DNA from: Mayamaea pseudoterrestris
Taxonomy: Eukaryota
Length of the DNA stretch: 64,000 bases
Assembly: GCA_027923505.1 (NCBI GenBank)
Contig: BROI01000031.1
Coordinates: 186,001 to 250,000 of the forward strand
Direction of reading: 5' to 3'
Within the stretch, counting starts at the first letter, position 1; each line of letters begins with the position of its first letter. Below the pieces are notes generated by a model. It did no database searches and had not been told where the DNA came from. It worked only from the letters and a program-made list of their open reading frames with translations. Both the position numbers and the translations under genes were made by a program. This document shows positions 16,401-47,321 of this stretch, piece by piece.

Positions 16401-18202
16401 TGGTCCAAAGATGTGCTCAGCAGCCAGGATGTCGGCCTTCGTCACAGGACAGTTCGGCAACTGATTGCTAGTAACGATGCGCAGGTAATCCTTGAGGCTT
16501 GGCCGTCCAATTTTGATTTGCAGTTCCCTAGCTCTAACAGCGCGTAAATAGTCATCATTGGTGTAGTTAGTACGGTTATCGCCTCTACCGTAGTCAACAT
16601 CGCCACTCCATCCTTGACATCGCTGCGCTTGCCCTTCGAAAAGCTCTCGCAAACATACAGCCCAGAGTCAGTCTCGACAAACTCTCGCTGCTTACCATCC
16701 GGCTTCTCCACAACGAACATTGGACGATCCACGCCGTGCATGAGATACTCCACGGTAAACTTCTTGCGGACTTGCGCCAAACTCAAAATGTTCGCCAGTC
16801 CCTGCGGATACCACCACACCGGACCATAGCCCTCCAGGTCGCCCATCATGTTCGTCCTTACTGTACCAGCGTTGCACTTGATCACCATCCACGTTGGCAC
16901 CGGGCGAATGTTCGTCAGCATCTTGGCGTTGCAGAACAGATCCACTGTCGACTGATTGTCCAAGAGCACAGCCTTCTTCGAGATGTTCACCTTCGGCGGC
17001 TGCGCGAACATGTATCCGACCTCATCGTCGTCATCGCTTTCTTCCTCGCTACCCAGCGTGAAGTGCTGCGCCCCACTAGCCTCTGCAGCCGGCGCACTCT
17101 CCGTAGACTCCGTTCTCGTAGGACAGTCTCGCTGCACATGACCAACCTGTTGACAGGTCCAGCATCTGGGAGGGTCACGCGCTGTACCAGTCGTGTGAAA
17201 CGCCACGCCCTCGTTCGTTGGCAACGTGGCTTCTCCATCCGCATGCTCACGACGCTGCATGATGTTGTATGCATCGTGGATCGTCAACGGGAAGTTGTCG
17301 TGCCCGTCGAGGTAGCAGTTGCGCAAGTGCTTGCAATACCCAGCGTATTCGCCCGTTGCGCCACGCACGAAAAGCATCGCAAGCTCGAGCTCTTCGGCGG
17401 CCTTGATATCCTCCTTGTTCGCCTTGTTACGATTGTCATCCTTGGCAATGTTCAACGCCACAATCTCGTTGTGCATCGTGACGCCAACCGCCTTCGCCAC
17501 GTCTGCCAGCGTGACCATGCTTTCGTAATATTTCTGCAGGCTTTCGCGCGCTCCTTGAGTACGTCCGAACAACTCAGCTTGAATGTCCACGACTTGATCC
17601 ACAAGTTTGCAGCGCCCTTCGTACGTATGCGAGATCTCCTTGATAATCGCCAGCAACTTAATTCCGTCCGTGTCCTCCTCGGCGTCTCGGAACTTGGCGT
17701 GCGACTTGACACGATCCTTCATACGCTCCGTGCATTGTCCATGCAACACGGCGTAGAGACCAGCGAGGAAGTCGGAGTATACACGCACGCGCTCGACATG
17801 CTCTTTCTTGTCGGCCTTGTATTCCTCGAGCATTATGGACCAGTCCGAGTCCGTCGTGTCGGCATCCTTCGTTGGACGTGCAGGCTCGTCAGGAATCTCC
17901 AGTTCCACGTTGCGCATGCCCTTGAGCAGCTCCTTGGTATATTTCTTGTAGGAGCGCCCGACGAAAGTGATGATCTCGTTCGTCGTACGGATGAATCCAT
18001 CGGGATCGCGCGAACCGTTATAGTCGTAGATGAATCCAGCGAGCGTCGGCTCGCTTCCTTGGAAATTTCCACTCGGCGCACGACTCGGTCCGTTGAGTCT
18101 GTTACCATTGCCTTGATTCCCGGAACGATTCCCAGCACGATTCCCACGACGATAATGACGGTTGCGTCGGTTTCCTTCGCTTGCTGGCGGAGCGGGAGGT
18201 GC
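13408..18202 (-). pseudogene. gag-pol of family A copy 1: start codon deleted, frameshifts near 16585 and 15893
   Basis: Three overlapping ORFs (16442-17917, 15846-16652, 13408-15909); both breaks read through at the equivalent sites of copy 2. Confidence 0.85.
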
Positions 18203-24881: not shown

Positions 24882-27800
24882 TCAAGCTCGATATGGTTTC
24901 AATTTCCGTATGTTTACTCGGTTGGTTACCATCGGCGTCAACTGAAGGGTAACTGTGCCATTGGTATGGACTTGTGTAATGGTGTAAGGGCCGATCCATC
25001 GCTCTTTAAGCTTGTCGGGATCGGGAATCTTCATCAAGACTTGGTCTCCTTGCTTGTAATCGTACGTCAAACGTCGTCGATTTGCTTTAATCAATGCTTC
25101 ATTGATCGCTGCTTCTCGCTTGTTTGTTATGGCCATTATATCCGCTATCAACGGAATGTCGAGATACATGTCTCTTTGGAATACGACAGCGCCTGGTGAT
25201 AGATTGTTGAGCGCCTTGCTCGCTGCTGCTCGAGTCGCATGCATCGCAGTTGCAAACGCTTGTTCCACAAGCTCTGTTACGTCCATTATCGCCTGCGGCG
25301 GGTGAGCGTGCATTAAGGTACGTATCACGTTGGCAATGGTTTGGTGTACTCGCTCGCAAATTGCGTTTGCTGTTGGATTCTTTACAGAAGTTGGACGCGC
25401 AACGATTCCATTGGCGTCAAGTAAACGACGAAACTCGCCGCGAAACTCGTTCCCTCTATCATGGATGACTCGCATTGGCCGTGGATAGCGTGCAAGCCAA
25501 TTGTTTTCAAAGAGCTGCGCTATTCTAGCAGCAGTGCGTCGATCGTAACGTACAATCTCAACGAGGTTGGTTACGGGGTCAATCATGGTCAACGCTTGGA
25601 AGGAATACTTGATTCCTTGTAACTTAATTTTCCACGGTCCTATTAGATCTATTTGTACTTCGTACCATGGTGCTTCTCGCACATCTCTTTGTGGTAGTTT
25701 TGTCCGTAATGCTGTCCTCCAGCTTTGTACCTTTGGCATGCGTCGCATTTGCCGACGATCGCCTCAATCGTTCGCCTCAATTGAGGATGATGAAAGTGTT
25801 GATTTATTGTAGCATCGAGCCTTGTCATCCCTGTGTGCGACAGAGACGTATGATACCATTGTATCAAAGGTTCAAGCATATTGGTTGGTATACAGATGCG
25901 CCAGGCAACTGGATTGTCGGGTGGTTCATATACAATCAATTGAACGTCATCAAACGCTCGCCATTTGACTGCCACAATTTGCTCATTCTGAACAGCTTCT
26001 CTAAGCTCCAAGTCTTCGTCTTGGTACGCGCGTATTGTGTTATATGATAATGGATGATTTCCTTCGTCGTCAAACGATGGATGGAGCAAAAAGCAATCTG
26101 CAAGCTCGTCGTCTTCAAGTAGACTCGTAGCGGCATCGTCGCTCGTTGTTGTTGTTCCATTAAGCTCTAATGGATTAAGACTCGTGCTTGTATTCTCCCC
26201 AACTGGAGAGGATGTACGGTTCGTTGGTGTTCTAGACAAAGCGTCGGCGACGGTATTGTCTTCTCCTTTACAATAGAAGAATTGCGGACCGTATTCCTCC
26301 AAATACAGTCTCCATCGCAGGACGCGCTGCGTTTGGTAAGTGGTTAACTCGTGAGTTAAGTTTTTATGGTCTGTATGTATCTGTATTACTGCTCCGAGGA
26401 GCATCGACCGGAACGTTTTCAACGTTTCAACAATGGAGAGGATCTCCTTTTCAATCGTTGTATAATTGCGTTGCGCAGTCGTCAACTTGCGCGAGTAGTA
26501 AGCAACTGGCACGCCGCCTTGCTTTATTACCGCTCCCAGCTGGTAATCAGAGGCATCTGTCTCTATTACAAAGGGTAAATTGTGTCGCTTGCCACCATCG
26601 CTTTCATTTGCTCAAACGCCTGTTGATGCTCGTCGTTCCAAACGAACGTTTTCGCTCCAGTTAAATTCGTTAACGGAGCAAGTATATGCGAGCGCTTCGG
26701 CCACATTGTTCTGTAGTAAGTTACCAGTCCGATAAAGGATCGCAGCTGCGATATGTTCTTTGGTGCGTCCATATCAAGGATCGCTTGAATCTTCTTGCGC
26801 CATGGTTTCAATCCAACTGGAGTGAGCCAATAACCCAACCAGTCGGTCTCCTTGACCGCCCATTCACACTTGAGTGGATTGATTGTAAAACCAGCCTCCT
26901 CGAGGCGAGTTAACACTTGCTCAAGCAGGGCAAGATGGTCGTTCCAATTGTCGCTAAAGCAACCGACGTCGTCAAGGTACTTTTCAACAGCTTCAATTCC
27001 TTTCAATACTCGTTCCATTATCTCTTGCGATACGTCAGTCGCTTGTTTAACGCCCATCGGCATTCGTTTATAACGATACAAGCCAAACGGCGTTGCAATC
27101 GTGCAGAGCTTGCTGCTCTCTTCGTCCAGCTCGAACGTGTAGTATTGCATGCTTATATCAAGCTTCGTGAAGAACTCATATCCTTTGCGCTTCGCTAGGA
27201 TATCTTGTATCCTCGGCAGAGGATATACCTTGCGCTTGATTACTTTATTAAGCGCTCGAAAGTCGGAAACAAAACGTACGGTACCGTCCTTCTTGGGGAT
27301 TATAAATGTGGGCGCCGCCCACTCGCTGCGTCCGCATGGTTCAAGGACTCCAATCTTTACGAGTCGATCCAGTTCAGCTTTAAACGTTTTCTCATGTACC
27401 TTCGGCACCGGATAGTGTCGTTTGTGTACAGGGACGGCGTCCTTGTCAACTTCCAAATGAACTTGTTCGTTGGGGTAATGGCCAAGCTTGCCAGAAAATA
27501 GATCAGGAAACTTATTGAGTAGCTCCAACAAGTCTTGTCGTTGCTCGTCAGTCAAGTGAGTAGCCTTGGCGACAACTTCATCGATATTCGCCTTGTCGTA
27601 CTTGGCTGCTTGTATTTCTGTTGCAAACGCCTCTTCGTCTGCATCCTCGCTCAAGCCGAGCAAGTATCTATTGAGCAGCGCATCGCGCACTTGTTTAGGG
27701 CGTCGACCCATTTGATTGAGCTCTTCGGCTCGCATCATTGGAGCGACATCGTCGTCCCACTTGATAACGTTGTCATTAAAGTCAATGATGAATTTCAATT

Positions 27801-28272
27801 CCTGTAATAAACCTCGACCGATGATCATGTCGTATGAGACATCCTTTTCAAACACGTGTGCTTTAAAGTCGCCAATCCGTTTCGATTGCGATAAATCGGG
27901 CATCGCCGCACTTGTTATGGTAACGATTCGAGAGCTTTCTAGCCTTCCTGCCAGTGTGTCGGATATCGTACGTCCTGTACTGGTCGTGCTCACTGCCGGC
28001 GGGAGAAGTCGCTGATTGATCCAAGAAGAAGTGGAACCTGAATCAAGGAGCGCAGTTAAATGTCGTTTAACTGGATGCCCGTTAACCTTGCCTACAACGA
28101 GTAGTACAACAGGCACGTAGTCATCAACGTTCTCGTTATTGTTATTATTGCTATCCTCAGCGTTCATCTGGTCGTCGCCAGTGCTATTAGACGCGATCTC
28201 GTCATCCTCAATACCGAAATCACCGATATAATGGTTGTCGTCCTCCTTCTTCTCCTCCTCGTGCTCGCCGAC
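24882..28272 (-). pseudogene. Gypsy pol (PR-RT-RNaseH-INT), frameshifts near 26580 and 25700
   Basis: SEWAAPTFIIPKKDG, DFRALN, RMPMG, YLDD, PVAYYSRKL, QIDLIGP, HDRGNEF, NAICERVH. The 26580 break looks like a short deletion in the RT-RNaseH junction. Confidence 0.9.
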
Positions 28273-28661
28273 AGTGAAGAATGCTTGATGCAATCTACTT
28301 GAGTACGATGAAAGGAGATGCTTTGTGAAATGCAACTGTTGCTTTATAGTGTTATGGACCAACCAGACTATCAGATTGTGAGCGAGATTTGAGCGAACAA
28401 GTTGCAAAACCATCGCCCGAGGCGTTGGGCGAAAACTACAGTTATGCATGCCAAACGGATTGCCTCAACTGATTCCCTATGTAATAATAGACCGTTTGAC
28501 AGTGTAACCATGCTTGCGAGAGGTTGGGGCATGCCTTTACTAGCAAGGCGTTGCCATGGTGAAGCAAGCAACATGAAGAACATTCCGACCACACATGATG
28601 GGTGTCGAAACGGACCCGGAGTACCGGAGAGATATGAACCCGATCCGAAGATACCTTAACT
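28273..28661 (-). repeat. 3' LTR of copia family B (389 bp)
   Basis: Reads identical to 36200-36588. Confidence 0.93.
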
Positions 28662-28757
28662 CGCCCTTGCGCTTGAATGCAGGCAAATAGGAACGGGAAT
28701 GTAAAATGTAGTTATTTGAATGTAGAGGTGTAGTGATGTAGAAGAAGCAGCAGGAGC

Positions 28758-31700
28758 TTAATTGTGTTGGACGCTTCTGCGGTTCTTGAGGAACACATCC
28801 TTGGAGAGACCCTTGGTGAGGTAGTCTGCCAGCTGATCGGCTGACTTAACCATGCAGATAGAGAATTCGCCTTGCTCATGGTGGCGCCAAAACCAATGGA
28901 ACTTGACCAACATGTGCTTGGTGCGGTTGGTGAGGCGCTTATTGACGGCAAGGTAGAAGGCGCCTTGGTTATCCTGGTAGGCACGAGCGCTCACGCAAGT
29001 TGCTGTAGGACTGGGAAGGCGGAGGGTCTGAAGGACTTCCATAAGGATGCGCTTGAGAGGGAGAAGGGCTTTAAGACCAAGGGAGAGTGCACAGTACTCG
29101 GCTTCCAGAGTTGAAAGGGCAATCTCGGTCTGTAGCTGGGATTTCCAAACAAGCGGGCAGCTACCGAGAAGAATGATGTAGCCTGTACGAGAGCGGACTG
29201 CTGTTGCAGAATGGTCGGGTTCCTGTTTATACAAACCAGCATAGTCGGCATCTGTATATAGATCAAGATTGAAGGAACCATTTGGCTTCATGACGGTGCC
29301 AATGGTGCGGGATCCCTTGAGGTAACGGACAATCGTTTTAACAGCTCTCGCATGAGTCTGCTTGGGACCGTGGTTGAAACGTGCCACTTGACTGACGGCG
29401 TAGGCAATGTCCGGGCGGGTATTGATGGCAAGATAGAGGAGCATGCCAACAACAGAAGGGTAGGACCAGCTTTCTTGCATGTAGGCTCCGTCGGGGTCGG
29501 TGCCAAGGGCAAGCTGGGTAGCAGGGACACTGTTGGGGTTGGACTCGGCAAGGCCAGTGGCAGTGATAATCTTGTCAATCAATCCTTGTTGGGTGAGAGT
29601 GTAGGTCCCTTTAGCATCATCACGTACAAGCTTGATGCCAAGGTACTCGCAAAGGGAGTCTTCCTGAGTGAGTTCAAGACCAAGGGACCGGAGCTTTGCA
29701 ACAAAGTCGTTGACAACCTTAGGAGTCTTGCCAATGATAGCTAAATCGTCCACATAGCACCCACACACTAGACCAAGGCCAAAGAACAAGCATTGGTCAA
29801 AGGAGCTTTGTATGAGACCAAGGCTTTTCAAGGCGCTGCACAGGTGTTGAAACCAGAGTCGGGGTGCAACGGACAAGCCGTAGAGGCTCTTCTTGAGGCG
29901 CAGGCAGTGGTTGGGGCCTTTGGTTGAGTTGAAACCTCGAGGAATGTGAATCCAAACTGGCTTATCCAACTCAGCTTGGACAAAGGCACTTGCAAAGTCG
30001 ACGGTGCAGGCATGCCAGTCAAGGGTCAGGGCAAACACTAGGAGGAGGCGAATGGTAGACCAGGCCACAACCGGGGCAAAGGTGTCAAATGAGCCTTCCT
30101 CAAGGTCACCACGGACACAGAAGCGAGCTTTGTATTTCTTGATTGTGCCATCGGGTGAACGCTTGCGGCGGAAGACCCAGGTGCCGGGGATGATCCTGCT
30201 CTTGGCCTCAGACTTGGGGACTTCAATCCATGTGCCTTTTGACTGTAGGGATGTGATTTCTCCTTCTGCAGCCTTGAGCCAGTGATCTCGGTGAGATACA
30301 TCGCACATTGCCTCATCCCAGGAAAGGGTATCAGGGTCAGAGGCAGCAGCTTTGTAAATGGCTGGCGCTGGGATGCGGAAGGCGGAATACAGGGAGGCAA
30401 AATGGGCATACTCAGCCACTTTTTCAGTGTAGGCGAACATGGCTGGAAGGCCAAGGCGCGGGTAGGTAAGTCGATCGGGTTGAACGCCAAAATTGGAGCG
30501 ACTAGAGCGTCTTGGTTCATGCTGTGTAGCTGGAGCCGGCGGAGGTGCAGGTGACGACGGAGGTGCGGATTCGTTCGCCCTTGGGTCGTGCAAAATGGGA
30601 GAGGGCGCCCTTGTTGGAGGCGGACTAGGCGCCCTTGCAGGAGGAGGACTAGGCGCCCTTGGAGGAGGCGAACTTGGCGCCCTTGTAGGAGGAGGACTGG
30701 GCGCTCTTGGTACCGCTAGCGTAGCTGGCGCCGGTGCTGGCGGGAGCTGTGCCCAGGTTGGCTCAGGAGGAGGAGGAATGGGAAGGACGCGAGGGGGACT
30801 GTTGCGTTCGAAGGCATTCTGTACCCTGTCGATCCTTTGACTTGCAGCTTCAGTAATGGGAGGTGTAGCATCATCCGGTGTTGCAGGCAGAGACTCGGGT
30901 TCGTCGGTTGGAATGTACTGGTAGGCGCTTTCGCCAAACATCTTGTCCCAGGCTGGGGTGTTGAAGTCAGGCAAACTGGACGGTTCCGAGGTAACTGTAG
31001 CAAACCAGTCATCAAAGACAACATGGAACTGTGGCGTAATAGCTCCTGTTGCAGGATTTAGGACCAAAGGGACAGAGCTGGCGTGACTGTCGCTCATACC
31101 CATGAAGATGCAGCGCTTGGAGCGGGGTGACCACCTTGGAAGCTTCTGGCCATCAGAAAGGCGCTTTTCAAGGACATACACTGGGCATCCCCATACATGG
31201 AGGTCATGGAACTTGGCTTGAGGCCAGCGAGTCCTGGTAAAGAGGTCATGGGGACTCACACCGCTTTGCAGGTCTGGCATCTTGTTCCAAAGGAAGACGG
31301 CGTAGCTGCAGGCCATGGGCCACAGATTAGGATCAGAGACTTCACTCCAGTGGATGGAGGCATGCAGCATCATAGCACGCGAGATGCTCATGATTGTTTG
31401 GATACTGCGCTCTGCAATGCCATTGTGATGGTGGGCTCCAGTGCCAGCAAACCTGCTAACTTGAGCAAAGGTGGACAAATGCTGCGCAAATGCTTGGGAG
31501 GTAAAGGCTCTTCCATTGTCTGAAAGATACTCTTGAGGAAGGACTCCAAAGTCACGGCATTTGAGCTCAAAGGCCTCCTTGGCTGCAAGCGTTTCGTCAG
31601 AATTGAGGTGCTTCTGGAACTCAATGTGGACAAAGCCAGTAGCATGATCCACAAAGATGCAACCACCACTGAAGAGCTCAGTTTCTTGAGACTTGCCTCT

Positions 31701-34700
31701 AGAGTTGAATAGGCGGCCTTTTGTAGAGCAAATGAAGTGGTCCACACTGACGCGCTGCCCTGGAAACAGATTGTCGCGCCGTAGGACACCCGCTCGGTCT
31801 TTAACTGCTTGAGACTGAATGCCTGGGGTTGCGCGGACCTTTTGCTTGGCATATTGACAGGCAGCACACATTGGAGGGTGAATGATGCGGGAGCTAAGGG
31901 CATGGAGCCTGCGCTGGGCCTCTGAATGGGAGAGGGTGCCACTGCGCATCAGGAACTGGATCCGGTTGAAGGCGAGATGGCCAAGGCGGAAATGCCATCT
32001 AAGGAGCTCCTTTTCAGACTCACTGAGGTTCTTGTTGATGTTTGAAAGGACGGAAGGAGCTGGGGTGACTGCAAGGCAATATGGAGAGCCTGGGGCACTT
32101 GGCGCGCCAGATGGTGGAGAAGAAGGCGGATCATGGTCTCGAGGGCCTTGTGGAGAACCAGGAGATGAGCCACTTGAGCCTCCTTCGCCTTGTGATTGGT
32201 CAGAAGGTGAGCTTGGCGCTGGACCAGGTGGAGGGCCAGGTGTTCCAGGATCGATGTAAAAGGCATTTGGGCCAGAATCATTGTCAATGGCGTAGGCAGT
32301 GGGCAAGTTTGAATCAGGATCCACCAAGACTTCAATCCCATTGTTGGTAATGGATCCATCCTCATGCGTGGTAGACTTGGTTCCACTTAGGTAGATAGCA
32401 TGCTCATCTCCATATATGAATTCCTCTGGGTATTGCTGCAGCAAGTTGGAGGTACTGAGCAACCGAACCTTTCCAGTAGGAACGTAATATGCAGGGAGTT
32501 TGAGGGTGCGCCGCATGCCTCCATTGTCAAGGAAGGTCCAGGCAACACATCCCCTGCCTGCAATGCGACCAGGTTGAAACAATCCATTGATAAATGCTCC
32601 CTCAGGAGGCGTTTCAATTGGACCAACAAAGTCAGAGCGGCATGGAGAAAGGGAGATGCTGGCGCCTGAATCCCAAATCACTTTGAACTGCTCTTCTTTA
32701 GCCTTGGGCTTAGAGTCAATGAAGTTAGGATTGCGGCGGATGGCTGCCAATGTCTGACGGATCCAGTCGGGCAATGCCTCTCGCTCAGAGGAGGAAAGGC
32801 TCAAGACGTAGGCAGAAGCAAGATAGCTAATGGGAGGGACGTGAACGGCGTCTGGTGATGGACTTGGCAGATGGCTTGGTCTCGTGCTGGGTTGACAAGT
32901 ATTCCCCCGTTTAGGATCACGGGAGGGGCTGCGAGACTGGTCTCTTCCAAGGGACTTGCCTTTACGGGAACGGCCTCGGCCTCGGCCTCGGCGGCCTCGA
33001 CGGCGGGATTTAGGGACTTGAGGGACTGGAAGAGGCGGCGGAGGAGGAGGAGCCACAGCAACACAGCGGTCGCACTTGTTGCGGCGCTGGCGGCGGCGGC
33101 GCTTGTTGCGGGGAGAGGCAGGTACATACCGAGGATATTGAGGATCCACATGGCCAATCATTGCATTTGGATCCAGGAGTGCCCGTTGAAGGTGTAAAGG
33201 GACAGTCGCAGGCCTCGCATGGCATCTTCCCCCGTTGGCAGGCCAGTAGGAGAGCCAGTAGGCAAAGTGCCGAGCAAACCACCGTGTGAGGCGCCGGTCA
33301 AAATGATCCATCAAAAGGAAGGCTTCCCACCAGACAGACCTTTGAATACCTCGCCAGGCAGTGCGACTCAAGGCGCGGTAGGCACGGTAAGGCAGGAGGA
33401 GGCGCCGCAAGTATGGGGCAGGTTGGCATCCAAGTAGGCCTCGACGAAGGCGGCGGTAGGCGGCGCGGTACCAGCAGCCGAGGAGAACCAATCCAGCAAG
33501 GAGGAACCACAAAATGAAAGGTTCAATGAGCTCCCAGTGCATCCAGTAGAAGAAGAGGGTGGCATGCACAAGGGAGAGGCTGGAGCTGGCGAGCTCAAGG
33601 AGCGAGGAGGCCAGAAGGGTGACGGCAGGCACAGGCACACCAATGGCTTCCTTAAACCGAGAGGCAGTCTCCTGAAGGTGAATGGTGGCGGTAGGCAAGG
33701 CAGGCTCAGGAACTGGGGTGAACACGGGCGGAAACCACTCATAAACTTGGCTGAGTGTAGGGCTTGGAGCTGGGGTCACAGCAGGGCGGAGAGCGACAAA
33801 CGGGGCAAATGCATCAGCCTTGGGAGCACACAGGCTCAAAAGGAGCAAGGTACCAACAGCAATCTTGGCAGACTTGGGGAACCGAGAGGGACTGCTGTGG
33901 GACCGAGCAGGGCGCTTTGCCTTGTTGGTGCTGGGAACGGTGGAGGCACTGTGAGTGGAGGCACTGTGACCGGATTCACTGTCAGATCCCCCGTCAAGGG
34001 TCAAATCCACAACCGTTTCAGTTAAATCAATGACAGTAGGAGCTGCAGCCACGGGAGGAGGAACTGTAGGAGGGCCATCAGGAATGATGCGAGGAGGCGC
34101 CACCCAACGGTTCACAAGTGGGGCAGCAACTGGGACAGTGGCAGGATCAGGCGACGGGGCAGACCAGCGCTTTTGGAACTCAACTTGCGCCAGGTTAACA
34201 TAAGGGACCACCCACTCATTGGGATCATGCACATTTGCAAGGTTTGCCTGATGAGTAGGAGGCTCCTTGGGTGGGTTCTTCATGGTGCGCGTGTCCTTGT
34301 GCTCCTTGGTGCAATGGGTGCCATACCGAGTGCAATAGCCACACCAGAGCTTGGAGTCCTGGTTGGAGGAGGAACGGCCCTTTTTGCCGTTGGAGGAGCG
34401 GTTGTTGTTGCCTTTGTTGCCCTTGCCATTATTGTTCTGACGGGAGGAGTTGCCTTTGCCTTGGTTGCCTTGATTGCCTCGACCAGAACCAGAATGGGAG
34501 GGCTTGCTGGGTCCACCGGAGCCACCACCGTTGGAACCACCATCCTTCTTCGGGTTGAAATGCTCATCCTTTTTGGGGCAGTCGGCAATTTGGTGCGCCA
34601 TGGAACCGCATACAAAACAGCCGCGCTGGGCAAGGGTGGAGCGGGAGGAGCTCTGGGACTTGGTATTGAGCTCGAGGAGATTGGCTTGGGGAACCCGCGA

Positions 34701-36068
34701 ATCCGTGCGGTTGCGGGCAGGCTGCCACAATTGCTTGGAGCAGAGGACGTCATAGGAGGCAATGGCATCAGCAAACAGGTCTTCAGGCAGGCACCGCTGT
34801 TCCGCCATGTAGAAATGCCGTTCACTTTCACGCATGGGGCGGAGCTCTAGGCGGGCCTTATAGTAACGCTTTTTGAAGGGGTAAAGCGCCTCACGGAAGG
34901 CCAGCTCACCAGGGTTTTCCTTCAAACACTCGCCTCCTGCGGTGTTTAGGGCCATGATGAGCTCCTCGGTGGTATCATGATTGTAGGTGCAGGCATTGAA
35001 GAGAGGCTTGAGCTTGTCCAGTACAGCGGTCGCATAAGCAGTGATGTTTTGGCCTGCAAAAGCTTGGGGACGGATGGCCACCGCCTCCCGTTCAATGCGG
35101 TGGTGAACCTCGCGGTTGTGCTGGCGCATCATTGACATGACACGGGAAAAGGTGATGACAAAGGGCTCCTTCTTGCCACCGGGCGTCTGGTACATGAGGC
35201 GCTTGAGCAACTCGGAATCAATGGAATTGCGAAGGAATGTGGTGGCTTCATCATCATTGGCCTCATCATAAGGGTCCCAGGTCTTCTTGGGTCCCTCGAG
35301 ATGACGGATGACCTCGTCGGTGGTCAAGAAAAGCCCACTGTGCTTGATAATGGAGACGGTTTGCTTGTCATCCAAAGGGTGATCAAGGTGCACAATGGTG
35401 TCCATTCCATGGGTGACGAGATGCTCCTCAACCTGCATTTCCCAAGCGAGCAGGTCGCCCTTTAAGGACAGCTTTTGCGACAGTCCTTTGGTACGGGCAT
35501 TCCAACCGGTGAGCTTGGCATCATCAAACCGGAGGCGAGCCAATGGAGACGGACGGATGGTGTAGGCCGGCTGAGGGAACTCGGCAAAGTCACGGGCCGG
35601 CTCACCGCCAGTGTAGGGGATGTACTTCTTTTCCAATTTGCAAAGTGCACCGTGCACTGGTTTAGGGGGGCGATCCGCATCCACGGCTGCCGCCAAGGCG
35701 CCTGGATCTTCAGGCGGCTCGTCTGCCGGCGGGGCAGGAGGAGCAGGCGGGGCAGGAGGCGCTGGAGCTGGAGGAGCTGGAGGCGCCGGAGGGGCTGGAG
35801 GAGCAGGAGCAGGCGGCGGGACGGGCGCCGGAGCTGGAGCGGGAGCGGGAGCAGGAGCTGGAGCGGGAGCGGGAGCGCGGGGAGGTGTAGGCCATGGCTT
35901 GCCTCCAACCTTTGGAGACGGCGTCGGGGGTTCCTCTCCATCCTTTGGAGCAGGGACTGGACCCTCTCCATCCTTTGGAGCAGGGTTGCGCTTTTTCTTG
36001 GGGAGGACGGGCTGAAACGGATCCTCGGCCGGTTCAGTGTCTTGGGGAGCAGTAGTAGGTGTCGACAT
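28758..36068 (-). CDS. Copia family B Gag-Pol polyprotein (2436 aa, single ORF)
   Basis: Pro/Ala-rich N-terminus; CFVCGSMAHQIADC knuckle; hydrophobic insert; VIWDSGAS protease; WHFRLGH...CAAC; integrase VSVD/SDNG/NGIAER; RT KYKARFCVRG, LYGL, YVDD; RNaseH YTDAD/STLEAEY/QDNQG/LADYLTK. Confidence 0.96.
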   Translation of the reverse strand: MSTPTTAPQDTEPAEDPFQPVLPKKKRNPAPKDGEGPVPAPKDGEEPPTPSPKVGGKPWPTPPRAPAPAPAPAPAPAPAPAPVPPPAPAPPAPPAPPAPPAPAPPAPPAPPAPPADEPPEDPGALAAAVDADRPPKPVHGALCKLEKKYIPYTGGEPARDFAEFPQPAYTIRPSPLARLRFDDAKLTGWNARTKGLSQKLSLKGDLLAWEMQVEEHLVTHGMDTIVHLDHPLDDKQTVSIIKHSGLFLTTDEVIRHLEGPKKTWDPYDEANDDEATTFLRNSIDSELLKRLMYQTPGGKKEPFVITFSRVMSMMRQHNREVHHRIEREAVAIRPQAFAGQNITAYATAVLDKLKPLFNACTYNHDTTEELIMALNTAGGECLKENPGELAFREALYPFKKRYYKARLELRPMRESERHFYMAEQRCLPEDLFADAIASYDVLCSKQLWQPARNRTDSRVPQANLLELNTKSQSSSRSTLAQRGCFVCGSMAHQIADCPKKDEHFNPKKDGGSNGGGSGGPSKPSHSGSGRGNQGNQGKGNSSRQNNNGKGNKGNNNRSSNGKKGRSSSNQDSKLWCGYCTRYGTHCTKEHKDTRTMKNPPKEPPTHQANLANVHDPNEWVVPYVNLAQVEFQKRWSAPSPDPATVPVAAPLVNRWVAPPRIIPDGPPTVPPPVAAAPTVIDLTETVVDLTLDGGSDSESGHSASTHSASTVPSTNKAKRPARSHSSPSRFPKSAKIAVGTLLLLSLCAPKADAFAPFVALRPAVTPAPSPTLSQVYEWFPPVFTPVPEPALPTATIHLQETASRFKEAIGVPVPAVTLLASSLLELASSSLSLVHATLFFYWMHWELIEPFILWFLLAGLVLLGCWYRAAYRRLRRGLLGCQPAPYLRRLLLPYRAYRALSRTAWRGIQRSVWWEAFLLMDHFDRRLTRWFARHFAYWLSYWPANGGRCHARPATVPLHLQRALLDPNAMIGHVDPQYPRYVPASPRNKRRRRQRRNKCDRCVAVAPPPPPPLPVPQVPKSRRRGRRGRGRGRSRKGKSLGRDQSRSPSRDPKRGNTCQPSTRPSHLPSPSPDAVHVPPISYLASAYVLSLSSSEREALPDWIRQTLAAIRRNPNFIDSKPKAKEEQFKVIWDSGASISLSPCRSDFVGPIETPPEGAFINGLFQPGRIAGRGCVAWTFLDNGGMRRTLKLPAYYVPTGKVRLLSTSNLLQQYPEEFIYGDEHAIYLSGTKSTTHEDGSITNNGIEVLVDPDSNLPTAYAIDNDSGPNAFYIDPGTPGPPPGPAPSSPSDQSQGEGGSSGSSPGSPQGPRDHDPPSSPPSGAPSAPGSPYCLAVTPAPSVLSNINKNLSESEKELLRWHFRLGHLAFNRIQFLMRSGTLSHSEAQRRLHALSSRIIHPPMCAACQYAKQKVRATPGIQSQAVKDRAGVLRRDNLFPGQRVSVDHFICSTKGRLFNSRGKSQETELFSGGCIFVDHATGFVHIEFQKHLNSDETLAAKEAFELKCRDFGVLPQEYLSDNGRAFTSQAFAQHLSTFAQVSRFAGTGAHHHNGIAERSIQTIMSISRAMMLHASIHWSEVSDPNLWPMACSYAVFLWNKMPDLQSGVSPHDLFTRTRWPQAKFHDLHVWGCPVYVLEKRLSDGQKLPRWSPRSKRCIFMGMSDSHASSVPLVLNPATGAITPQFHVVFDDWFATVTSEPSSLPDFNTPAWDKMFGESAYQYIPTDEPESLPATPDDATPPITEAASQRIDRVQNAFERNSPPRVLPIPPPPEPTWAQLPPAPAPATLAVPRAPSPPPTRAPSSPPPRAPSPPPARAPSPPPTRAPSPILHDPRANESAPPSSPAPPPAPATQHEPRRSSRSNFGVQPDRLTYPRLGLPAMFAYTEKVAEYAHFASLYSAFRIPAPAIYKAAASDPDTLSWDEAMCDVSHRDHWLKAAEGEITSLQSKGTWIEVPKSEAKSRIIPGTWVFRRKRSPDGTIKKYKARFCVRGDLEEGSFDTFAPVVAWSTIRLLLVFALTLDWHACTVDFASAFVQAELDKPVWIHIPRGFNSTKGPNHCLRLKKSLYGLSVAPRLWFQHLCSALKSLGLIQSSFDQCLFFGLGLVCGCYVDDLAIIGKTPKVVNDFVAKLRSLGLELTQEDSLCEYLGIKLVRDDAKGTYTLTQQGLIDKIITATGLAESNPNSVPATQLALGTDPDGAYMQESWSYPSVVGMLLYLAINTRPDIAYAVSQVARFNHGPKQTHARAVKTIVRYLKGSRTIGTVMKPNGSFNLDLYTDADYAGLYKQEPDHSATAVRSRTGYIILLGSCPLVWKSQLQTEIALSTLEAEYCALSLGLKALLPLKRILMEVLQTLRLPSPTATCVSARAYQDNQGAFYLAVNKRLTNRTKHMLVKFHWFWRHHEQGEFSICMVKSADQLADYLTKGLSKDVFLKNRRSVQHN

Positions 36069-36185
36069 GCTTCTTGCAGGGTATGGAGCTTGATATCAAA
36101 GGCTTGTTGGCTTGTTTAAACGGCGGCGTCCCGACGTAAAAGGAATCGTTTGCTTGAGGGAAACGTTGGCGTGTAAGGCTTTAAC

Positions 36186-36199
36186 TTGGGCTCGTAACC
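36186..36199 (-). other. PBS of copia family B, complementary to the anticodon arm of initiator tRNA-Met (half-tRNA type)
   Basis: GGTTACGAGCCCAA abuts the LTR and resembles the GGTTATGGGCCCAG PBS of Drosophila copia. Confidence 0.7.
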
Positions 36200-36588
36200 A
36201 GTGAAGAATGCTTGATGCAATCTACTTGAGTACGATGAAAGGAGATGCTTTGTGAAATGCAACTGTTGCTTTATAGTGTTATGGACCAACCAGACTATCA
36301 GATTGTGAGCGAGATTTGAGCGAACAAGTTGCAAAACCATCGCCCGAGGCGTTGGGCGAAAACTACAGTTATGCATGCCAAACGGATTGCCTCAACTGAT
36401 TCCCTATGTAATAATAGACCGTTTGACAGTGTAACCATGCTTGCGAGAGGTTGGGGCATGCCTTTACTAGCAAGGCGTTGCCATGGTGAAGCAAGCAACA
36501 TGAAGAACATTCCGACCACACATGATGGGTGTCGAAACGGACCCGGAGTACCGGAGAGATATGAACCCGATCCGAAGATACCTTAACT
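36200..36588 (-). repeat. 5' LTR of copia family B (389 bp)
   Basis: Direct repeat of 28273-28661. Confidence 0.93.
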
Positions 36589-36593
36589 CCGAC

Positions 36594-37628
36594 AAGGATT
36601 TCTTCGAGCTCTTCAAGCTCATCAATCATGTTTTGGTCTTGACGATTGTTTCCACCGCCTCGCGGCGTCCAACGGCTCTTCTTTTGCTGCTGCTGCGGCT
36701 GCTGTTGCGGCTGTCCGACGGAGCTCTTGCGTTTAAATGGATTGTCATCGCAATCCTTCCACAAATGCGCTTGGACGCCTGGTCCGTGGTCTCTATTACA
36801 CCAGTTGTTATTGCCTCGGCCGCCGCCTCGGCCTCCCAAGCGACCACGTCCTCGTCCTCCTCTTCCGCCGCCACGGAATCCATTGTTGTTGCGAGTTGCT
36901 TCCTTCGTTGCTGTAGTAGCCGTCGTCGACGGGCGTTTCTTTCCTTGTTCTTTTGCCTCTTCTACTCGAAGGCGATTGAAGTATTCGCACAACTGTGACG
37001 TCGTCATCTCGGTATACACTTTGCCAGCATCGCTGAGCTTCTTTTGAAATGCCTCGGGTTGCTTCTTGTACAACATGAAACGAATCTCGTCCGTTGTGAA
37101 GACTGATTTATTCTGTCGATCCTCGACAGGAGGCTCGCGAGGAAACCATCCAAGCAGTTTGCTGATAATCATCAGCCTCATATACAACCACGTTGTATCC
37201 TTTCCAAAGGGTTTCTTTACCGTCAAAATGTACTCTTTCTCTCGTTCGTAACCCGTATTGACTGGGATGAACAGAGCAAGCCACATTCGCTGGGCAAGTT
37301 TGATTGCTGCGACACTCGTCACATTGATCTCGTGCTCTACAATCACGTTGTCAAAGCTGTCGCGCAGCTCCTCGTTCAACATTTCTCTGAACGTTTGCAA
37401 CTGCTCGGTTGCTTTGTCTTTCATATCCAATGAATCCACCAACGCCTCGTGGTGAGTAATCGTTTTGATGAGAAGCTCCACTTCAGGAGAGTTGCATTCT
37501 CGCGCCTCGCGCTTGCGATTACGACCCTGCGAGTCGGTTACATTCAATGTTACCTTCGGCAACGTATCGTACTCGATCCTGGGGATCAGAGGAATGGGGA
37601 CGTCTGTCAACGTTGAATTTGTTGCCAT
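36594..37628 (-). pseudogene. Gypsy gag, cut off from pol by the copia B insertion
   Basis: ORF from ATG 37628; RG-rich basic region and C-H-H-C motif (WCNRDH...HLWKDCDDNP); in frame with pol once the insertion is removed. Confidence 0.85.
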
Positions 37629-37663
37629 CAATACTTACAGATCTTCGTCTTCTGAATTCAGAG

Positions 37664-39578: not shown

Positions 39579-42500
39579 TGTTGGATCTAGAATATATCTT
39601 GCGCGCCCTTGAAGCGACACTAATGATTAAGCAGAACAGAGTCAATAAAACCACTTTACTTATTTTCTCCAAGAAGTGATCGTCCTCGATCCACTCCTTC
39701 GGTTGCCGCTTACCGCGCTTACTTAAATGTGACCGTCTTCGTGACGTCACCGCTGCCGCTTCGGTTTGGGTTCTCATCCATGCTCAACACACTCCTTTGG
39801 GCCGAGTAGTACTTACTGCTCGAGGCCAGATTCATAACCAGGTTGCGGAGCTTGCCAAACTGGGCTCCCTGCAATGGTTTCGTGAAGAAATCCGCGACCA
39901 TGTCTCCGGTCGGACAATGCTCAATGTTGACTTCACCAGCTGCCACGCGATCTTTCACAAAGAAGTACCGAACATTCATGTGTCGCGTGCGCTTTGTACT
40001 TGAGCTTCTGCCATTCTTTTCCAACAGCATTGAACTCATATTGTCTTGATACAATTTCGTGTCTTTGACCCCGAAACCTTGCGCCTTCAGAAAATATCCT
40101 GTCCACAGCAACTGCGGTAGCCATCACGAACTCCACAACTTCGCTCTCCGTCGAGCTTCTTGTTACCAACTTCTGTTTAGCCGACGTACTGTACACTGAT
40201 CCTTGGCCAAGTGTCATTGTTCCACCAGTGTGACCCTTCATGTCTGGGTGCACCGCGTACGACGCATCCACCCACCACTGGACTATCCCGGACTGGTCCG
40301 CCTTCAGCGTCAACACCATGTCCACGCTTCCGCGTAAATATTTAATCACTCTTGCAGCCTTCTTATAGTCGTCTTCGTCAGGCTGCTGCAGCCTCGTGCT
40401 CAAGAAAGAAATCGCTGTGCGAATATCCGGTCGCGCTCGCTGACTCAGATACAGACACTGCATCACAATCGTCACAAAAATCTGCTTCTTCGCTTCGCTC
40501 AACATGACAGGATTTTCCGATATCTGAAACAAGTGACTGGCTGCCGGGTAGCTGCCGTTCCATCCATGTCGTCTGGCGCATGATGCAGGATGTTCTTCAC
40601 ATAGTCAACCATGTTGATTGCTACTTCTCCAGGCTTAGTATGGTCAATACCATGCCGAGGTAGTCGTGCACTTTTCCGCGTGACTTATTCATTGGAGTCT
40701 CCTTGCCAAACTCCTCATCCATCTGCGCGATGAACTCATCCACTACGCTCACGTCGACGTGCGAAATCTTCAAATCGTCCACGTGCCATCCCACGGTGAT
40801 TTGCTTCCCATTGACAATCTTGTTGCACACACACGGATCGTACGGGTTCTTCTCGAAGCCCCACTCAAGCAATTTTGCGGACAACTTCTCCCAGAATAGT
40901 CGCGCTGCTCGAAGCGTACCATAAAGCGCCATGAGTAATTCAACATACATGACTTTCTCGCCATTCTCCATTGTGACGCAAGGCTCGTACATCTCGCGAT
41001 CAATTTCCAACAGTAGCTCCACCATCTTCCCAGTGAAACGAACGTGCACCAACTCATCCATTTCCGCTTGCATGAAAGCACCCGGTACATCAACCACAGC
41101 AACCTCGCGCCCTTCCATAGCGTCAATGATGGCTGTCAGAAAGATGGCCTCTGTCGCTATCGTTGGAGATGCTGCGTCTTCCTTTGCAGTGTATGCTCGT
41201 TGCTTGCGTCCATCCGCGCATCCGCGTCCCTTCACAGTCCCGCATCTCTTGCGCTTGAGAAACATCAAATACGCCAGAGCGTCCTTGCGCTGCTGCGGAG
41301 TCAGAGTGCATTGGGGGACTGCCTTCATGACGTGCCTGTCGTGTAGCTGCTGCATTTCCTTGCGCACTGCCTCCACTCCAGCATCGCCAAAAGCCTTTAA
41401 ACCTTGTCGCATATTCATCTGTGCCGTGACGAGTGGCTCCGACACTTCCTCTGCAGCGTCGAGCGTGAACAAATGAGCGAACGAGCGAGGTTTGCGCGCA
41501 CGCAGGCCATACCGACCAGTGCGTGGGCCATAGCGCGCATCGAAATCCTCTTCGTCTGCAGCAGCTGGCACTCCTTCAATTTCGCCTTCATCGGGCACTC
41601 CTTCAATTTCGCCATCATCCACGGCTGGCGCGTCGTCAAGTTCGCCGTCAATGGCCTCACCATCCTCGTCGTTCGGCACTCCTTCGATTGCGCCGTCAGC
41701 ACCATCGTCGTCGTCGTCGTCGTCATCGGTCGCATTCACTCCTTCGCTTCCGCCGGCAGAGTCGTCGTCACCGCGAGAAGCGTCGTCATCATAATCAGAG
41801 TCATCATCATCCTCGGCGTCATCTTCGTGCCACATGACTGGCTCAGCAGCCTCCGCAACACGGTGGCGGTCCACGACCACGATGCCCCGATTGGCCTTCT
41901 GTTGACGAGCGAGACGATGCACGCGCTCAATGACATCATCAGGCATGGGCAAAGGCGTCGCGTGCCCACGATTCAGAACTTTGCCCGAAGACAAACTGAG
42001 AAATAAAACCCACCCTGCACATTACCAGTCGGGCGCAGAGCCAGCGCACCGATCGTGCGCGCCTGCATGTCATTGCTGTGCGACTCATGCGTTTGCACAT
42101 ACTGACCAAATTCATACTTGCAATGCCGATTAAAGTCAACTGTCTGACCAGTCACAATAGTGCGTGGACTGAGATCCTTCGAAATGCCACGCTCGTTCGG
42201 AAACGCATTCAGCAAAACACGGCAGACTTCGTCATTTCGATAACCAAGCGTGCCGGCACGTGCTTAAATGGCAACGTGTTGTATGTCGCGCGCACCCGTT
42301 CTTTCACGACACGGATAAAACGTTCAATTTCGCCAACGTGTTCATCCTCAGATGTCGCATTGAGCGCCACTCCGAGATCAGCCAACGCGCCAAGCATTGG
42401 AGCGAACTCCCCATCCATCAGAGCCGCGACGACACGGAACCCACCGCGTGCGTAAATCTTCAACACAGACTCGATTGCCTTCAACATAACCGGAAGCGTA

Positions 42501-45359: not shown

Positions 45360-46796
45360 CTATAGCCTGCTACGAATTACAAGGCGCCGTGTACAGAGTG
45401 GTTCCTTGCCGCTTTGAAGTGGTTGATGGCCAGCGTGACGGCTTGCATCAGCAGCAACGTTTCGTATCCCCAATCCATCCAACAGGCGAATCCAATGTAG
45501 GACTGCAAGACGCGTTGGGCCTCCCAGCATGAGTTGCACTATTGTGTCGGAATGGTTAGCGCCGGCAATATAAACTTCGTCTATTCGGCCACCACCATTA
45601 AATCCGTCACAACTGCGCAAAATTCGGGCTGCTTCTGCCGTTGCAGTGAACGGAACCGTTGCATCTTCCATGCCATGGAGAAGCATTACATATTTTGGTA
45701 GCTTTGCTGTAACAACAGACTCCGTCATGTCAAGTGAAAGCATACTTTGTAATCTTTGCGCTGGTGAATTGGCCGCAAACGCCTGTCGAGTATATCCATT
45801 GACAGGTTTCATGGGTGAAATTTCTTCCACTCCTCGGGCAGCTTCATAATCAAAATGATGTCCAATATCGTACGGACCCGAGAGTCCAATATATGAGTCA
45901 AATGATTGGAGTGAACACTGCGAATCACATGCGTGGTCGTTGGTGATCAACGCTAGTAGTGCAAGGTGCGCGCCAGATGAATGCCCCATGATTGTTTTGC
46001 GATATTTCTCGTCGGGAAAAAGTTGATTGAGACACCACGTTGCTGCATTAACATCATCAAGTTGCTCCTGTATGGTTCCATCTGGATATACTCTATAGTT
46101 CGGAATCGCAACGACGTATCCCTGTTCCAAAAATGACTGCGCAACGAGCCGATACATCCATGCACATCCACTTCCCCAGGCGCCGCCATGCCAAAATACG
46201 ATAAGTCGCTTGCCTTTGTTAAGACATTCGTTTTTTGGGTGATATATATCCATGTTTTGTCGAGCATGATGGCCGTAGGAAACCGATTGTGCGCAACGAG
46301 TCAGCTGGAGGAACTCCCAGGCCGCACGAGGCGAAACCACTGCTAACGAAGGGGCCGAAAGAGTCACTAAACTGTCTGACAGTGTCCGAAACCCGCCACA
46401 ATCCCGAAAGCGATGCTGCCACTTTAATGGAAGCAAAAGGCTCAAGAGGCGAGTGCTTGCGTCTCCTAAGTTTGGAGCATGTATTAAATGAGGATGCGGA
46501 AGACGACTCCAATGTTTTGAGTGAGTCTGCATTATTCGATCAATGAGTCTTTCCTGCAGCGTCTCGTGCAAATAGTGACTGTGAGCTGCGTTGTTTGTAT
46601 CTTGTTCAGAATGATGTAGTAAATGCCGATCATGGCGTCGATGCCTGTTCGAAAGGGAAGAATTTCTAGTCAACAAGGCATGCTGCAGGGAATCGAAGGG
46701 CGACACTCGCGGAGGAGTCAGTGACAAAGCCAAGGCTTGCTTTGTGGTTAGGCTGGACGTGGAACAATGGCTAGACAAGTAGCGAATGTCCGCCAT
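45360..46796 (-). CDS. Isoprenylcysteine methylesterase-like alpha/beta hydrolase
   Basis: FWHGGAWGSG, PNYRVYP, MGHSSGAH, LSGPYDI, LLHGMEDATVP, late His. Confidence 0.85.
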   Translation of the reverse strand: MADIRYLSSHCSTSSLTTKQALALSLTPPRVSPFDSLQHALLTRNSSLSNRHRRHDRHLLHHSEQDTNNAAHSHYLHETLQERLIDRIMQTHSKHWSRLPHPHLIHAPNLGDASTRLLSLLLPLKWQHRFRDCGGFRTLSDSLVTLSAPSLAVVSPRAAWEFLQLTRCAQSVSYGHHARQNMDIYHPKNECLNKGKRLIVFWHGGAWGSGCAWMYRLVAQSFLEQGYVVAIPNYRVYPDGTIQEQLDDVNAATWCLNQLFPDEKYRKTIMGHSSGAHLALLALITNDHACDSQCSLQSFDSYIGLSGPYDIGHHFDYEAARGVEEISPMKPVNGYTRQAFAANSPAQRLQSMLSLDMTESVVTAKLPKYVMLLHGMEDATVPFTATAEAARILRSCDGFNGGGRIDEVYIAGANHSDTIVQLMLGGPTRLAVLHWIRLLDGLGIRNVAADASRHAGHQPLQSGKEPLCTRRLVIRSRL

Positions 46797-47321
46797 GATT
46801 AACAGTAAGTATGATAATCTGATGATGACGAGGCAGCAGCAAGCATCGAGGACTTTTGGTCTTAGCGGCACTGGAATAACGTGTCATAGCGGTAATGGCG
46901 TGAATGGCGAACAAAAAACACATTCGCGGAGCGGGGAGGTGGTAGGATCAATGCTTTTTAGGGAGCAGTGGCATTCGCGCGCTTCGCGCGCGCAAACACT
47001 GCCAAACCATGGACAAAAGTAAAATTAATACTGGCCTCATATCAATTTGCATATTTGTAGCCAGAATCTAGATGGGTAGATGCCAACAATCTTGTCTTTA
47101 TGGAACAAAAGGAAAAACTATAGATTGCTTAGATCAAACAGTAATCAATGGCTCTTTTGAGAAACTACTCCTAAAGTAAAGCCCAATGTTACTTGGCATA
47201 GCTAACAGGGTCATTGCGAGGGGTCATTGCATGCGCCGAAAGCTTGACGTCATATCTGTCGCAGTGGCAGCGCACCAATTAATGTCGTGAAGCATGTTCG
47301 GATAGATCCTACCACAATGAG

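Follow-up and report, generated by a model that had tools for sequence, protein, structure and literature searches.

What does a Ty1/copia retrotransposon carry between its nucleocapsid and its protease, and why should that stretch be hydrophobic? The question is raised by a complete, 8316-bp long terminal repeat (LTR) retrotransposon at positions 28273-36588 (minus strand) of a 64,000-nucleotide stretch of the Mayamaea pseudoterrestris genome (contig BROI01000031.1, positions 186,001 to 250,000 of the forward strand), which was analyzed as a whole and is called the window here; all coordinates are those of the window. Ty1/copia Gag-Pol has hitherto been described as a soluble chain of capsid, nucleocapsid (NC), protease (PR), integrase (IN) and reverse transcriptase (RT). 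In the element studied here, however, about 490 residues (aa 591-1080) lie between the second of two zinc fingers and the helices that precede the protease. A first-pass annotation had put this extra region at ~450 residues and had proposed a polyprotein threaded through a membrane. Sequence comparisons indicate that the knuckle-to-protease stretch is a conserved module in a lineage of related elements and not a loose linker. We propose, with a probability of roughly 0.55, that the module is a membrane-anchoring helical hairpin that would hold both Gag and Pol in the cytosol, a reading that draws on sequence patterns and structural models.

All parts of the region lie on the minus strand. The portion of Gag that can be aligned with relatives covers aa 68-630 (34179-35867), including both zinc fingers and the motif ANL..DP.W; by blastp it matches P0002, the closest long relative, at E = 1e-44 and many others at 1e-25 to 1e-41. 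Zinc knuckle 1, CX2CX4HX4C (aa 484-497; 34578-34619), has its C, C, H and C invariant in the alignments; Pfam zf-CCHC is absent from the matches of the query at E <= 0.01, though it is precomputed for many relatives. The second zinc finger, WCxxC...H....H (aa 576-590; 34299-34343; family consensus WCxKCxRWTTTHxTxxH), is recognized in the alignments and is modeled by AlphaFold2 (AF2) as a small beta unit with a predicted local distance difference test score (pLDDT) of 84-88. The conserved motif QANLANVHDPNEW (aa 607-619; 34212-34247), which corresponds to ANLxxxDPSAW in the family and was identified by both alignments and profile, is the last part of the query with a recognizable family match. 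It is followed by a Pro-rich low-complexity expansion without counterpart in relatives (aa 620-735; 33864-34211) and by three hydrophobic segments: H1 (aa 736-754; 33807-33863), which has a 13-residue hydrophobic core, IAVGTLLLLSLCA, and then PKADA|F; H2 (aa 808-834; 33567-33647), a moderately hydrophobic Ser-rich helix reached through a Pro/Thr-rich stretch (aa 757-807); and H3 (aa 845-869; 33462-33536). On the Kyte-Doolittle (KD) scale, the 19-residue peaks are 1.54 (aa 736-754), 1.69 (aa 808-827) and 2.26 (aa 847-865). The last is the highest hydropathy peak of the whole 2436-aa protein, and none of 200 shuffles of the query spacer attained it (shuffle mean 1.17, maximum 2.14). Past H3, an Arg/Trp-rich polybasic region (aa 870-1079; 32832-33461) begins with a net charge of +11 over 40 aa, and the pre-protease helices (aa 1080-1118; 32715-32831; AL..P..F in the family) again align with relatives and are modeled with pLDDT 77-92. 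The first-pass annotation had described much of this correctly. Its quoted strings were all located, KIAVGTLLLLSLCAPKADAFAP at aa 735-756 (33866-33801) and FILWFLLAGLVLLGCWY at aa 851-867 (33518-33468); its Pro/Thr-rich spacer and very basic Arg/Trp-rich stretches can be read directly in the sequence, and its hydrophobic segments are real. The other two frames of the minus strand contain 9 and 20 stops over aa 630-1100, and therefore the open frame is not an effect of composition.

The extra region is not peculiar to this copy. A whole-protein search returned 229 relatives, of which 120 were listed, and the counts of family proteins given below rest on those listed. Most are ~2000 aa long. Five are named and come from the diatoms M. 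pseudoterrestris and Fragilaria crotonensis, and the lineage is probably a diatom one. A recognizable knuckle and protease motif are present in 96 of the listed relatives, and their spacers were scanned. The spacer measures 316-455 aa in 76 of these relatives, is longer in 14 and shorter in 6, and at least one of its 19-mers has KD >= 1.6 in 86. A long spacer with hydrophobic segments is therefore a trait of the lineage, and the 633 aa between knuckle and protease in the query are an expanded version of it. At a threshold of KD >= 1.5, at least one spacer segment was found in 90 of 93 related polyproteins and in all 26 metagenome copies examined; the metagenome scan yielded 62 loci and confirmed 509 of 633 candidate stretches as relatives, and the metagenome open reading frames (ORFs) repeat the layout of the family. 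Among these 26 ORFs, two segments occur in 18, one in 4 and three in 4. In several sublineages the spacer seems to have a tendency to expand greatly. P0048, P0035, P0065 and the members of their clusters reach 2600-2900 aa with spacers of ~1000 aa, and many full-length copies of them lie on megabase contigs.

The order of the parts is the same in every alignment: one of 82 sequences, two further ones, and an independent alignment of 23 metagenome copies with the query. The CCHC knuckle is followed by WKxxPP, the second finger (WCxKCxRWTTTHxTxxH), ANLxxxDPSAW, a first hydrophobic helix, a second helix beginning with AP..W, then PxP, RxxRR, H..YPxxLR, further Pro, Gly and Tyr positions, the AL..P..F helices and the protease. 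The first helix reaches KD >= 1.6 in 70 of the 82 aligned sequences and starts a median of 20 aa past the Trp of DPSAW; the loop between the helices has a median length of 31 aa in the same alignment. KD is at least 1.2 for the second helix in 61 of 82, and its Trp is kept in 80 of 82. By shuffling, AP..W itself would be expected in 3.1 of the 93 proteins and in 0.6 of the 26 metagenome copies; it is found in 56 and 19, respectively. About 60 aa past the second helix lies YPxxLR, a motif of the family that we take to resemble retroviral YPXnL late domains. Where 3.1 of the 82 relatives would be expected to contain YP.{1,3}L, 48 do, and all 82 aligned sequences (100%) keep the Pro of YPxxL. In the query, P957 of the polybasic region aligns with a Pro found in 100% of the 82 relatives, and VPLHL (33189-33203) occupies the place of YPxxL, so that the query lacks a YPXnL late-domain motif at the aligned position.

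Composition hardly accounts for the hydrophobic segments. In 62 of 92 spacers, no more than 1 shuffle in 200 reached the observed hydropathy peak, and the mean peak was 2.10, compared to 1.02 after shuffling. The part of Gag N-terminal to the knuckle reaches KD 1.6 in only 2 of 92 proteins. A different copia lineage within the window has ~66 aa from knuckle to protease and no segment with KD >= 1.5. The charge past the helices is likewise shared: over the 40 aa after the last segment, the median net charge is +6 in the proteins (positive in 66 of 90) and +8.5 in the metagenome loci (positive in 25 of 26). The family pattern fits what an integral membrane hairpin would show, namely two hydrophobic helices no shorter than ~19 residues, joined by a short loop and followed by a positive cytosolic flank; in the query only H3 looks clearly like a transmembrane (TM) helix, both by KD and on a second, approximate hydrophobicity scale. 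As far as sequence can tell, the two hydrophobic helices and their positive C-terminal flank are conserved and constrained. The in-window control lineage is represented by two copies on the minus strand (13408-17917 and 39719-41994) with near-identical RT regions; its gag lies at 16442-17917 and its pol at 13408-15909, and an acidic, Asp/Glu-rich linker precedes its RT.

Conservation and dN/dS among relatives had been named in the first-pass annotation as one check on this region. The layout is kept, and the proportion of non-synonymous differences (pN) in the module is far below that of synonymous differences (pS). We compared members of one metagenome subfamily (L007, L009, L020 and L008; 71-75% nucleotide identity), in which synonymous sites are saturated (pS 0.64-0.86) and dN/dS values, where computable, are consequently rough. 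In the helix module pN was 0.20-0.37, beside a pS of 0.66-0.86, and dN/dS 0.13-0.21; the corresponding ranges were 0.16-0.35 and 0.12-0.24 for the post-helix part, 0.16-0.32 and 0.08-0.13 for Gag, and 0.09-0.18 and 0.03-0.05 for Pol. A close pair, L002 and L050, differs in the module by 5 synonymous and 5 non-synonymous changes (dN/dS 0.28). These values indicate that the module is under purifying selection in the relatives. Contigs from 4 sequencing runs, which represent 3 samples and 2 studies, contain near-identical copies of the window's own element. Of their 73 differences from the window, 40 were listed, 3 in the LTR and 37 coding; 30 of the coding differences are synonymous and 7 non-synonymous. 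Two listed differences fall within aa 630-1100, both synonymous (aa 880 and 884) and too few for a regional estimate. An in-frame GGA insertion at 33039 also distinguishes copies. These ~99.5% identical copies (runs X1-X4) come from contigs labeled as three different organisms (A, B and C) in two studies, and they may represent strains, sister species or recent spread.

The module is conserved in pattern and not in sequence, which drifts rapidly. The helices keep their position and their hydrophobicity; also retained are the Pro and Trp with which the second helix starts, the basic flank and a small number of point motifs. A word-indexed search with aa 600-1110 gave no matches, an exhaustive phmmer search with aa 590-1120 gave none at E <= 0.001 among 1.84 billion representatives, and the ESM Atlas gave no usable match. 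The only query segment matched by a family profile built without the query was QANLA.V.DP..W, at 5.2 bits. The second helix of the family corresponds to H3, as W854 falls on the near-invariant Trp in every alignment; in place of AP..W the query reads EPFILW. For the first helix, the counterpart appears to be either H1, on which MAFFT places it, or H2, since weak BLAST pairs set H2 and H3 of the query on the two helices of relatives. Compared with relatives, the query has ~95 additional Pro-rich residues before H1 and ~70 after it. Extra hydrophobic segments between the two helices are also present in six metagenome loci, and P0002 has three hydrophobic segments. We considered a duplicated hairpin and dropped this idea, because no internal repeat links H1 to H2 or H3 at either the protein or the DNA level.

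AF2 was run on aa 470-1260 of the query with 52 relatives and returned a mean pLDDT of 60.6. Besides a helix over H2 and H3, it predicted helices at aa 732-746 (overlapping H1; pLDDT ~70), 795-809, 894-940 and 986-1002, the last two within the polybasic region. Confident helices at aa 1080-1118 run into the beta barrel of the retropepsin-type protease (aa 1129-1260; 32289-32684; D1133-S-G, within VIWDSGAS at aa 1130-1137), for which pLDDT exceeds 90. For L007, a typical member of the family, AF2 predicted three separate module helices (residues 113-135, 139-157 and 162-178 of the fragment; pLDDT 58-78), followed by a basic helix and a conserved amphipathic helix. Foldseek comparison of the L007 model with the PDB yielded weak retropepsin matches (XMRV and M-PMV proteases and Ddi1; best E = 3.5e-3) and nothing for the helices.

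These observations suggest how the module could work. As the two helices leave the ribosome, they would enter an endomembrane together as a hairpin, and the endoplasmic reticulum (ER) would be the simplest candidate. Gag, on the N-terminal side, and PR-IN-RT, on the C-terminal side next to the basic flank, would both stay cytosolic and tethered to the membrane; the flank past the last helix is positively charged, so a cytosolic Pol is consistent with the positive-inside rule. With Gag-Pol and its RNA gathered in one place by the tether, particles could assemble and the protease could dimerize there. In the query, the same module is stretched by Pro-rich low-complexity insertions and has three hydrophobic segments. 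The earlier idea of a membrane-threaded polyprotein thus gains weight from the fixed-place segments of the relatives and from their positive flank, and loses the signal peptide and plastid motif with which it was first put forward. The release of an envelope-like peptide, also raised at that stage, has no direct support.

Several observations weigh against a membrane-anchoring hairpin. The assignment of membrane helices rests on KD windows, the second, approximate hydrophobicity scale and AF2 helices. Buried core segments of the RT in the same protein reach KD 1.85-1.87, so that KD >= 1.6 alone is no proof of a membrane helix, and on the second scale only H3 is clearly membrane-like (0.58; 3.99 for H2 and >4 for H1). 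In many members the hydrophobicity of the second helix is no more than moderate (KD >= 1.6 in 31 of 82). AF2 merges H2 and H3 of the query into one 67-residue helix (aa 813-879; pLDDT up to 94) and shows no hairpin. Hydrophobic segments number 0 in 3 relatives, 1 in 35, 2 in 43, 3 in 11 and 4 in 1 (n = 93), and with an odd number Pol would end up on the non-cytosolic side, unless one or more of the segments fail to cross the membrane. Ahead of the first helix the flank is acidic and not basic, with a median net charge of -1 or -2. Sequence homology between aa 630-1100 of the query and the family does not reach significance: a family spacer hidden Markov model built without the query scores aa 595-1100 of the query no better than 500 shuffles, BLAST beyond Gag aa 68-630 yields only weak collinear pairs (E 1.6-2.8), and the spacer of a typical member (P0017, aa 440-700) recovers 3 proteins only, itself included. 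As to selection, the saturation of synonymous sites noted above belongs here, as does the post-helix part of the L002/L050 pair, with a dN/dS of 0.74 on very few changes. Low-depth X3 contigs contain six single-base losses, one of which, at 34156 in a single contig, lies within the region and would break the frame; the losses are either assembly errors or decayed copies.

Part of this evidence would also suit helices that do not span a membrane and instead promote self-association or condensation, or control when the protease is activated, for example by pairing Gag-Pol chains for dimerization. The long helices without an obvious hairpin in the AF2 model of the query, the modest KD of the second helix and the range of 0 to 4 segments all speak for this explanation, and the assembly foci of Ty1 Gag reportedly depend on a prion-like domain (10.1101/2023.02.27.530227). 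We nevertheless regard it as possible but rather improbable, because the first helix, with KD 2.0-2.7 over 19 uncharged residues, is typical of membrane helices, the second begins with interfacial Trp and Pro and is followed by a strong positive flank, as membrane helices are, and the low-confidence or disordered surroundings make a buried globular core unlikely. That the region is an unconstrained, fast-drifting linker whose hydrophobic runs are by-products of composition is hardly credible. Such a linker would agree with the lack of significant sequence matches for aa 630-1100, with the low-complexity Pro-, Arg- and Gly-rich runs and with in-frame length variants among copies such as the GGA insertion. 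It is contradicted by the shuffle controls for hydropathy, AP..W and YP.{1,3}L, by the fixed order and position of the parts in 82 and 23 relatives, by pN far below pS, by a frame that stays open where the other two have 9 and 20 stops, and by the other copia lineage of the window, which lacks such segments. The shuffles, the fixed layout and the low pN largely refute this reading.

The module might instead be excised by the protease of the element or by host signal peptidase, giving a separate small membrane protein of viroporin-like or FAST/sORF2-like type, which might pair with YPxxL as a device for budding or transfer. The layout of a hairpin followed by a polybasic stretch would fit, as would the excess of YPxxL (48 of 82 relatives, 3.1 expected), a motif that we presume to be akin to ALIX-binding late domains. 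No cleavage sites are known, the query has VPLHL without the Tyr of YPxxL, and diatom elements give no sign of an extracellular or intercellular phase. An analogy comes from Drosophila, where the available text of one preprint describes a short TM protein with a polybasic tail, encoded by MDG1-group elements, that moves capsids between cells (10.1101/2025.03.14.642691); according to the same text, this sORF2 is encoded on its own and has an N-myristoylation motif and a single TM helix, features that set it apart from the module. On balance excision is unlikely. More speculative still is a lineage-wide combination of a hairpin-anchored Gag-Pol with YPxxL that would recruit ESCRT/ALIX-type machinery and allow budding into a lumen or vesicle without an env gene. 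We consider this a long shot; if true, it would give the Pseudoviridae an enveloped or vesicle-borne stage, with possible transfer between cells, such as gametes, or between species.

The internal signal peptide and ASAFAP-type plastid-import motif proposed in the first-pass annotation found no support in the comparison with relatives. According to this proposal, KIAVGTLLLLSLCAPKADA|FAP is a cleaved internal signal peptide whose motif directs the protein to the chloroplast ER or plastid, or else a captured host presequence. By eye, aa 735-756 do follow an n-h-c pattern, with a Lys in the basic n-region, a 13-residue hydrophobic core, Pro at -5 and A-D-A with Ala at -3 and -1, followed by Phe at +1; moreover, an H1 with its N-terminus inside and its C-terminus outside, together with an H3 that spans back, would leave Pol cytosolic. 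The ASAFAP-like string ADAFAP (aa 751-756; 33801-33818) is not conserved, however. Of the 96 spacers scanned, 3 contain the pattern [AS].AF.P, and only the query has it at the place of H1; the SLAFAP of P0029 falls within the second helix. By chance the pattern arises in 4% of shuffles of the mid region and in 18% of shuffles of the whole protein. A functional presequence is expected at the N-terminus, and this segment starts at aa 735 of 2436, inside an expansion that relatives lack. Neither the word-indexed search nor the search of 1.84 billion representatives recovered a host-type homologue of the region, and we rejected capture of a host gene on this ground. There is also no rationale for importing reverse-transcription machinery into a plastid. 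We therefore consider the proposal very unlikely, and ADAFAP is most likely a chance feature of the insertion in this copy.

Internal signal or anchor helices are familiar from RNA-virus polyproteins, such as the flavivirus capsid anchor and p7 of hepatitis C virus (HCV) and pestiviruses; HCV p7 has two helices and a basic tail. Like these, the module would consist of helices in a long polyprotein, past a nucleic-acid-binding capsid part, that set the topology of what follows. In the viruses, glycoproteins are threaded into the lumen and cut by signal peptidase, whereas the diatom module has no sizable conserved lumenal domain, its loop having a median length of 31 aa. Ty1 is not known to have a hydrophobic hairpin between NC and PR, and the diatom tether would lie within the chain, past NC. 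Ty1 belongs to the same superfamily, and its ER-coupled translation corresponds to the role proposed here for the hairpin: in the available text of Doh et al. 2014 (PMC3945221), translation of Ty1 RNA at the ER involves the signal recognition particle, and the targeting of this RNA and of nascent Gag to the ER nucleates the site of particle assembly. Ty1 Gag reportedly passes into the ER lumen and comes back out.

Among retrotransposons, the nearest functional parallel, by analogy of layout, is the sORF2/FAST-like protein of the Drosophila MDG1 group, whose TM helix is directly followed by a polybasic patch and amphipathic helices (10.1101/2025.03.14.642691, in its available text). Both are encoded by LTR retrotransposons and join a membrane helix, in the module a proposed one, to a polybasic patch; sORF2 differs in belonging to Ty3/gypsy elements and, as noted above, in being a short ORF of its own. 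For the Pseudoviridae, the available text of the ICTV profile (PMC8515867) lists capsid, NC, PR, IN and RT-RNase H, with the separate env-like ORF of sireviruses as the sole TM feature. That gene is a third ORF past pol, whereas the helices described here lie inside gag-pol; because only 96 bp separate the stop codon (28758) from the 3' LTR (28661), the window element has no sirevirus-type third ORF. The diatom CoDi elements of Maumus et al. 2009 (PMC2806351) are, as far as the available text describes them, recently inserted Ty1/copia elements, 5.2-8.1 kb in length, in which a single long ORF encodes the polyprotein and the two LTRs are very similar; TG/CA LTR ends are missing in CoDi3.2, 4.2 and 4.3, and copia elements are given as the dominant, stress-activated transposons of diatom genomes. 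Compared by these descriptions only, CoDi elements and the window element share a single long ORF, very similar LTRs, recent insertion and, in some cases, the absence of TG/CA ends; these ends and the diatom origin of the five named relatives are the pointers to a possible place among the CoDi groups. The words "transmembrane" and "hydrophobic" are absent from the main text of that paper and from the text of a 2025 preprint on diatom transposable elements. A full-text search of openly accessible literature, combining copia or LTR with transmembrane, polyprotein or membrane-anchor, found no description of helices inside a copia Gag-Pol. Apparently, then, the module of this lineage is undescribed.

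If the anchoring hairpin proposed here is correct, a conserved and selected membrane-type helix pair in Gag-Pol would add a new domain to the parts list of retrotransposons, common to hundreds of elements in a major algal group. It would be a built-in solution to the problem of tying assembly sites to the ER, which has been worked out genetically in yeast. A distinct step in the copia life cycle would also bear on the evolution of diatom genomes. For annotation, the module accounts for polyproteins of ~2000 aa in place of ~1400.

Apart from the module, every structural test that was applied places the element among the ordinary members of the copia superfamily. Its LTRs, 389 bp each with ends AGT...ACT (5' LTR 36200-36588, 3' LTR 28273-28661), are identical at 389 of 389 bases and are bounded by a 5-bp target-site duplication, GTCGG (36589-36593 and 28268-28272). 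A single ORF of 2436 aa plus stop (28758-36068) encodes Gag-Pol, in which a CCHC nucleocapsid knuckle in Gag precedes PR, IN, a copia-type RT and RNase H, in this order. Pfam identified gag_pre-integrs, rve, SH3_retrovirus and RVT_2 in copia order. The integrase (31008-32033) comprises gag_pre-integrs at aa 1346-1409, rve at 1466-1534 and SH3_retrovirus at 1619-1687, and the reverse transcriptase matches RVT_2 at aa 1954-2183 (29520-30209; E = 4e-40). The RNase H region (aa ~2200-2436; 28761-29471; TDADYAG at aa 2272) was assigned from conserved alignment columns, and Pfam reported no match there. Because the LTRs are 100% identical, the target-site duplication is present and the frame is single and open, the element is intact and very recently inserted. 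The LTR termini are AGT...ACT instead of the usual TG...CA, and the sequence 3' of the 5' LTR (GGTTACGAGCCC...) is unlike the usual initiator-tRNA primer site.

Two further low-complexity runs lie in the polyprotein. The N-terminus of Gag contains a long (AP)n / (PPA)n run (~35694-35873; aa ~66-125), in which a 12-base deletion at 35854 in run X1 changes the length but keeps the frame. Between integrase and RT, the linker (~30580-30780; aa ~1765-1830) contains repeated RAPSPPP(T/R/A) units; these differ in length among copies, as a 6-base insertion at 30725 occurs in the copies of three runs, together with several substitutions.

The copia element is inserted in a Ty3/gypsy-like element (26566-28272 and 36589-37631, minus strand), which has a gag-like ORF followed by Asp_protease_2 and RVT_1. 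Excision in silico of the copia element and one copy of GTCGG restores an uninterrupted gypsy-like gag-pol frame (...EELEEILVGEHEEEKKEDD...), which makes it probable that the host element was still intact at the time of the insertion. The transposon cluster lies among ordinary host genes at 11296-12882, 45360-46871, 48505-50436 and 61184-63151; their kinds are an NDH2-type oxidoreductase, an alpha/beta hydrolase, a GDA1/CD39 nucleoside phosphatase and the proteasome subunit RPN2.

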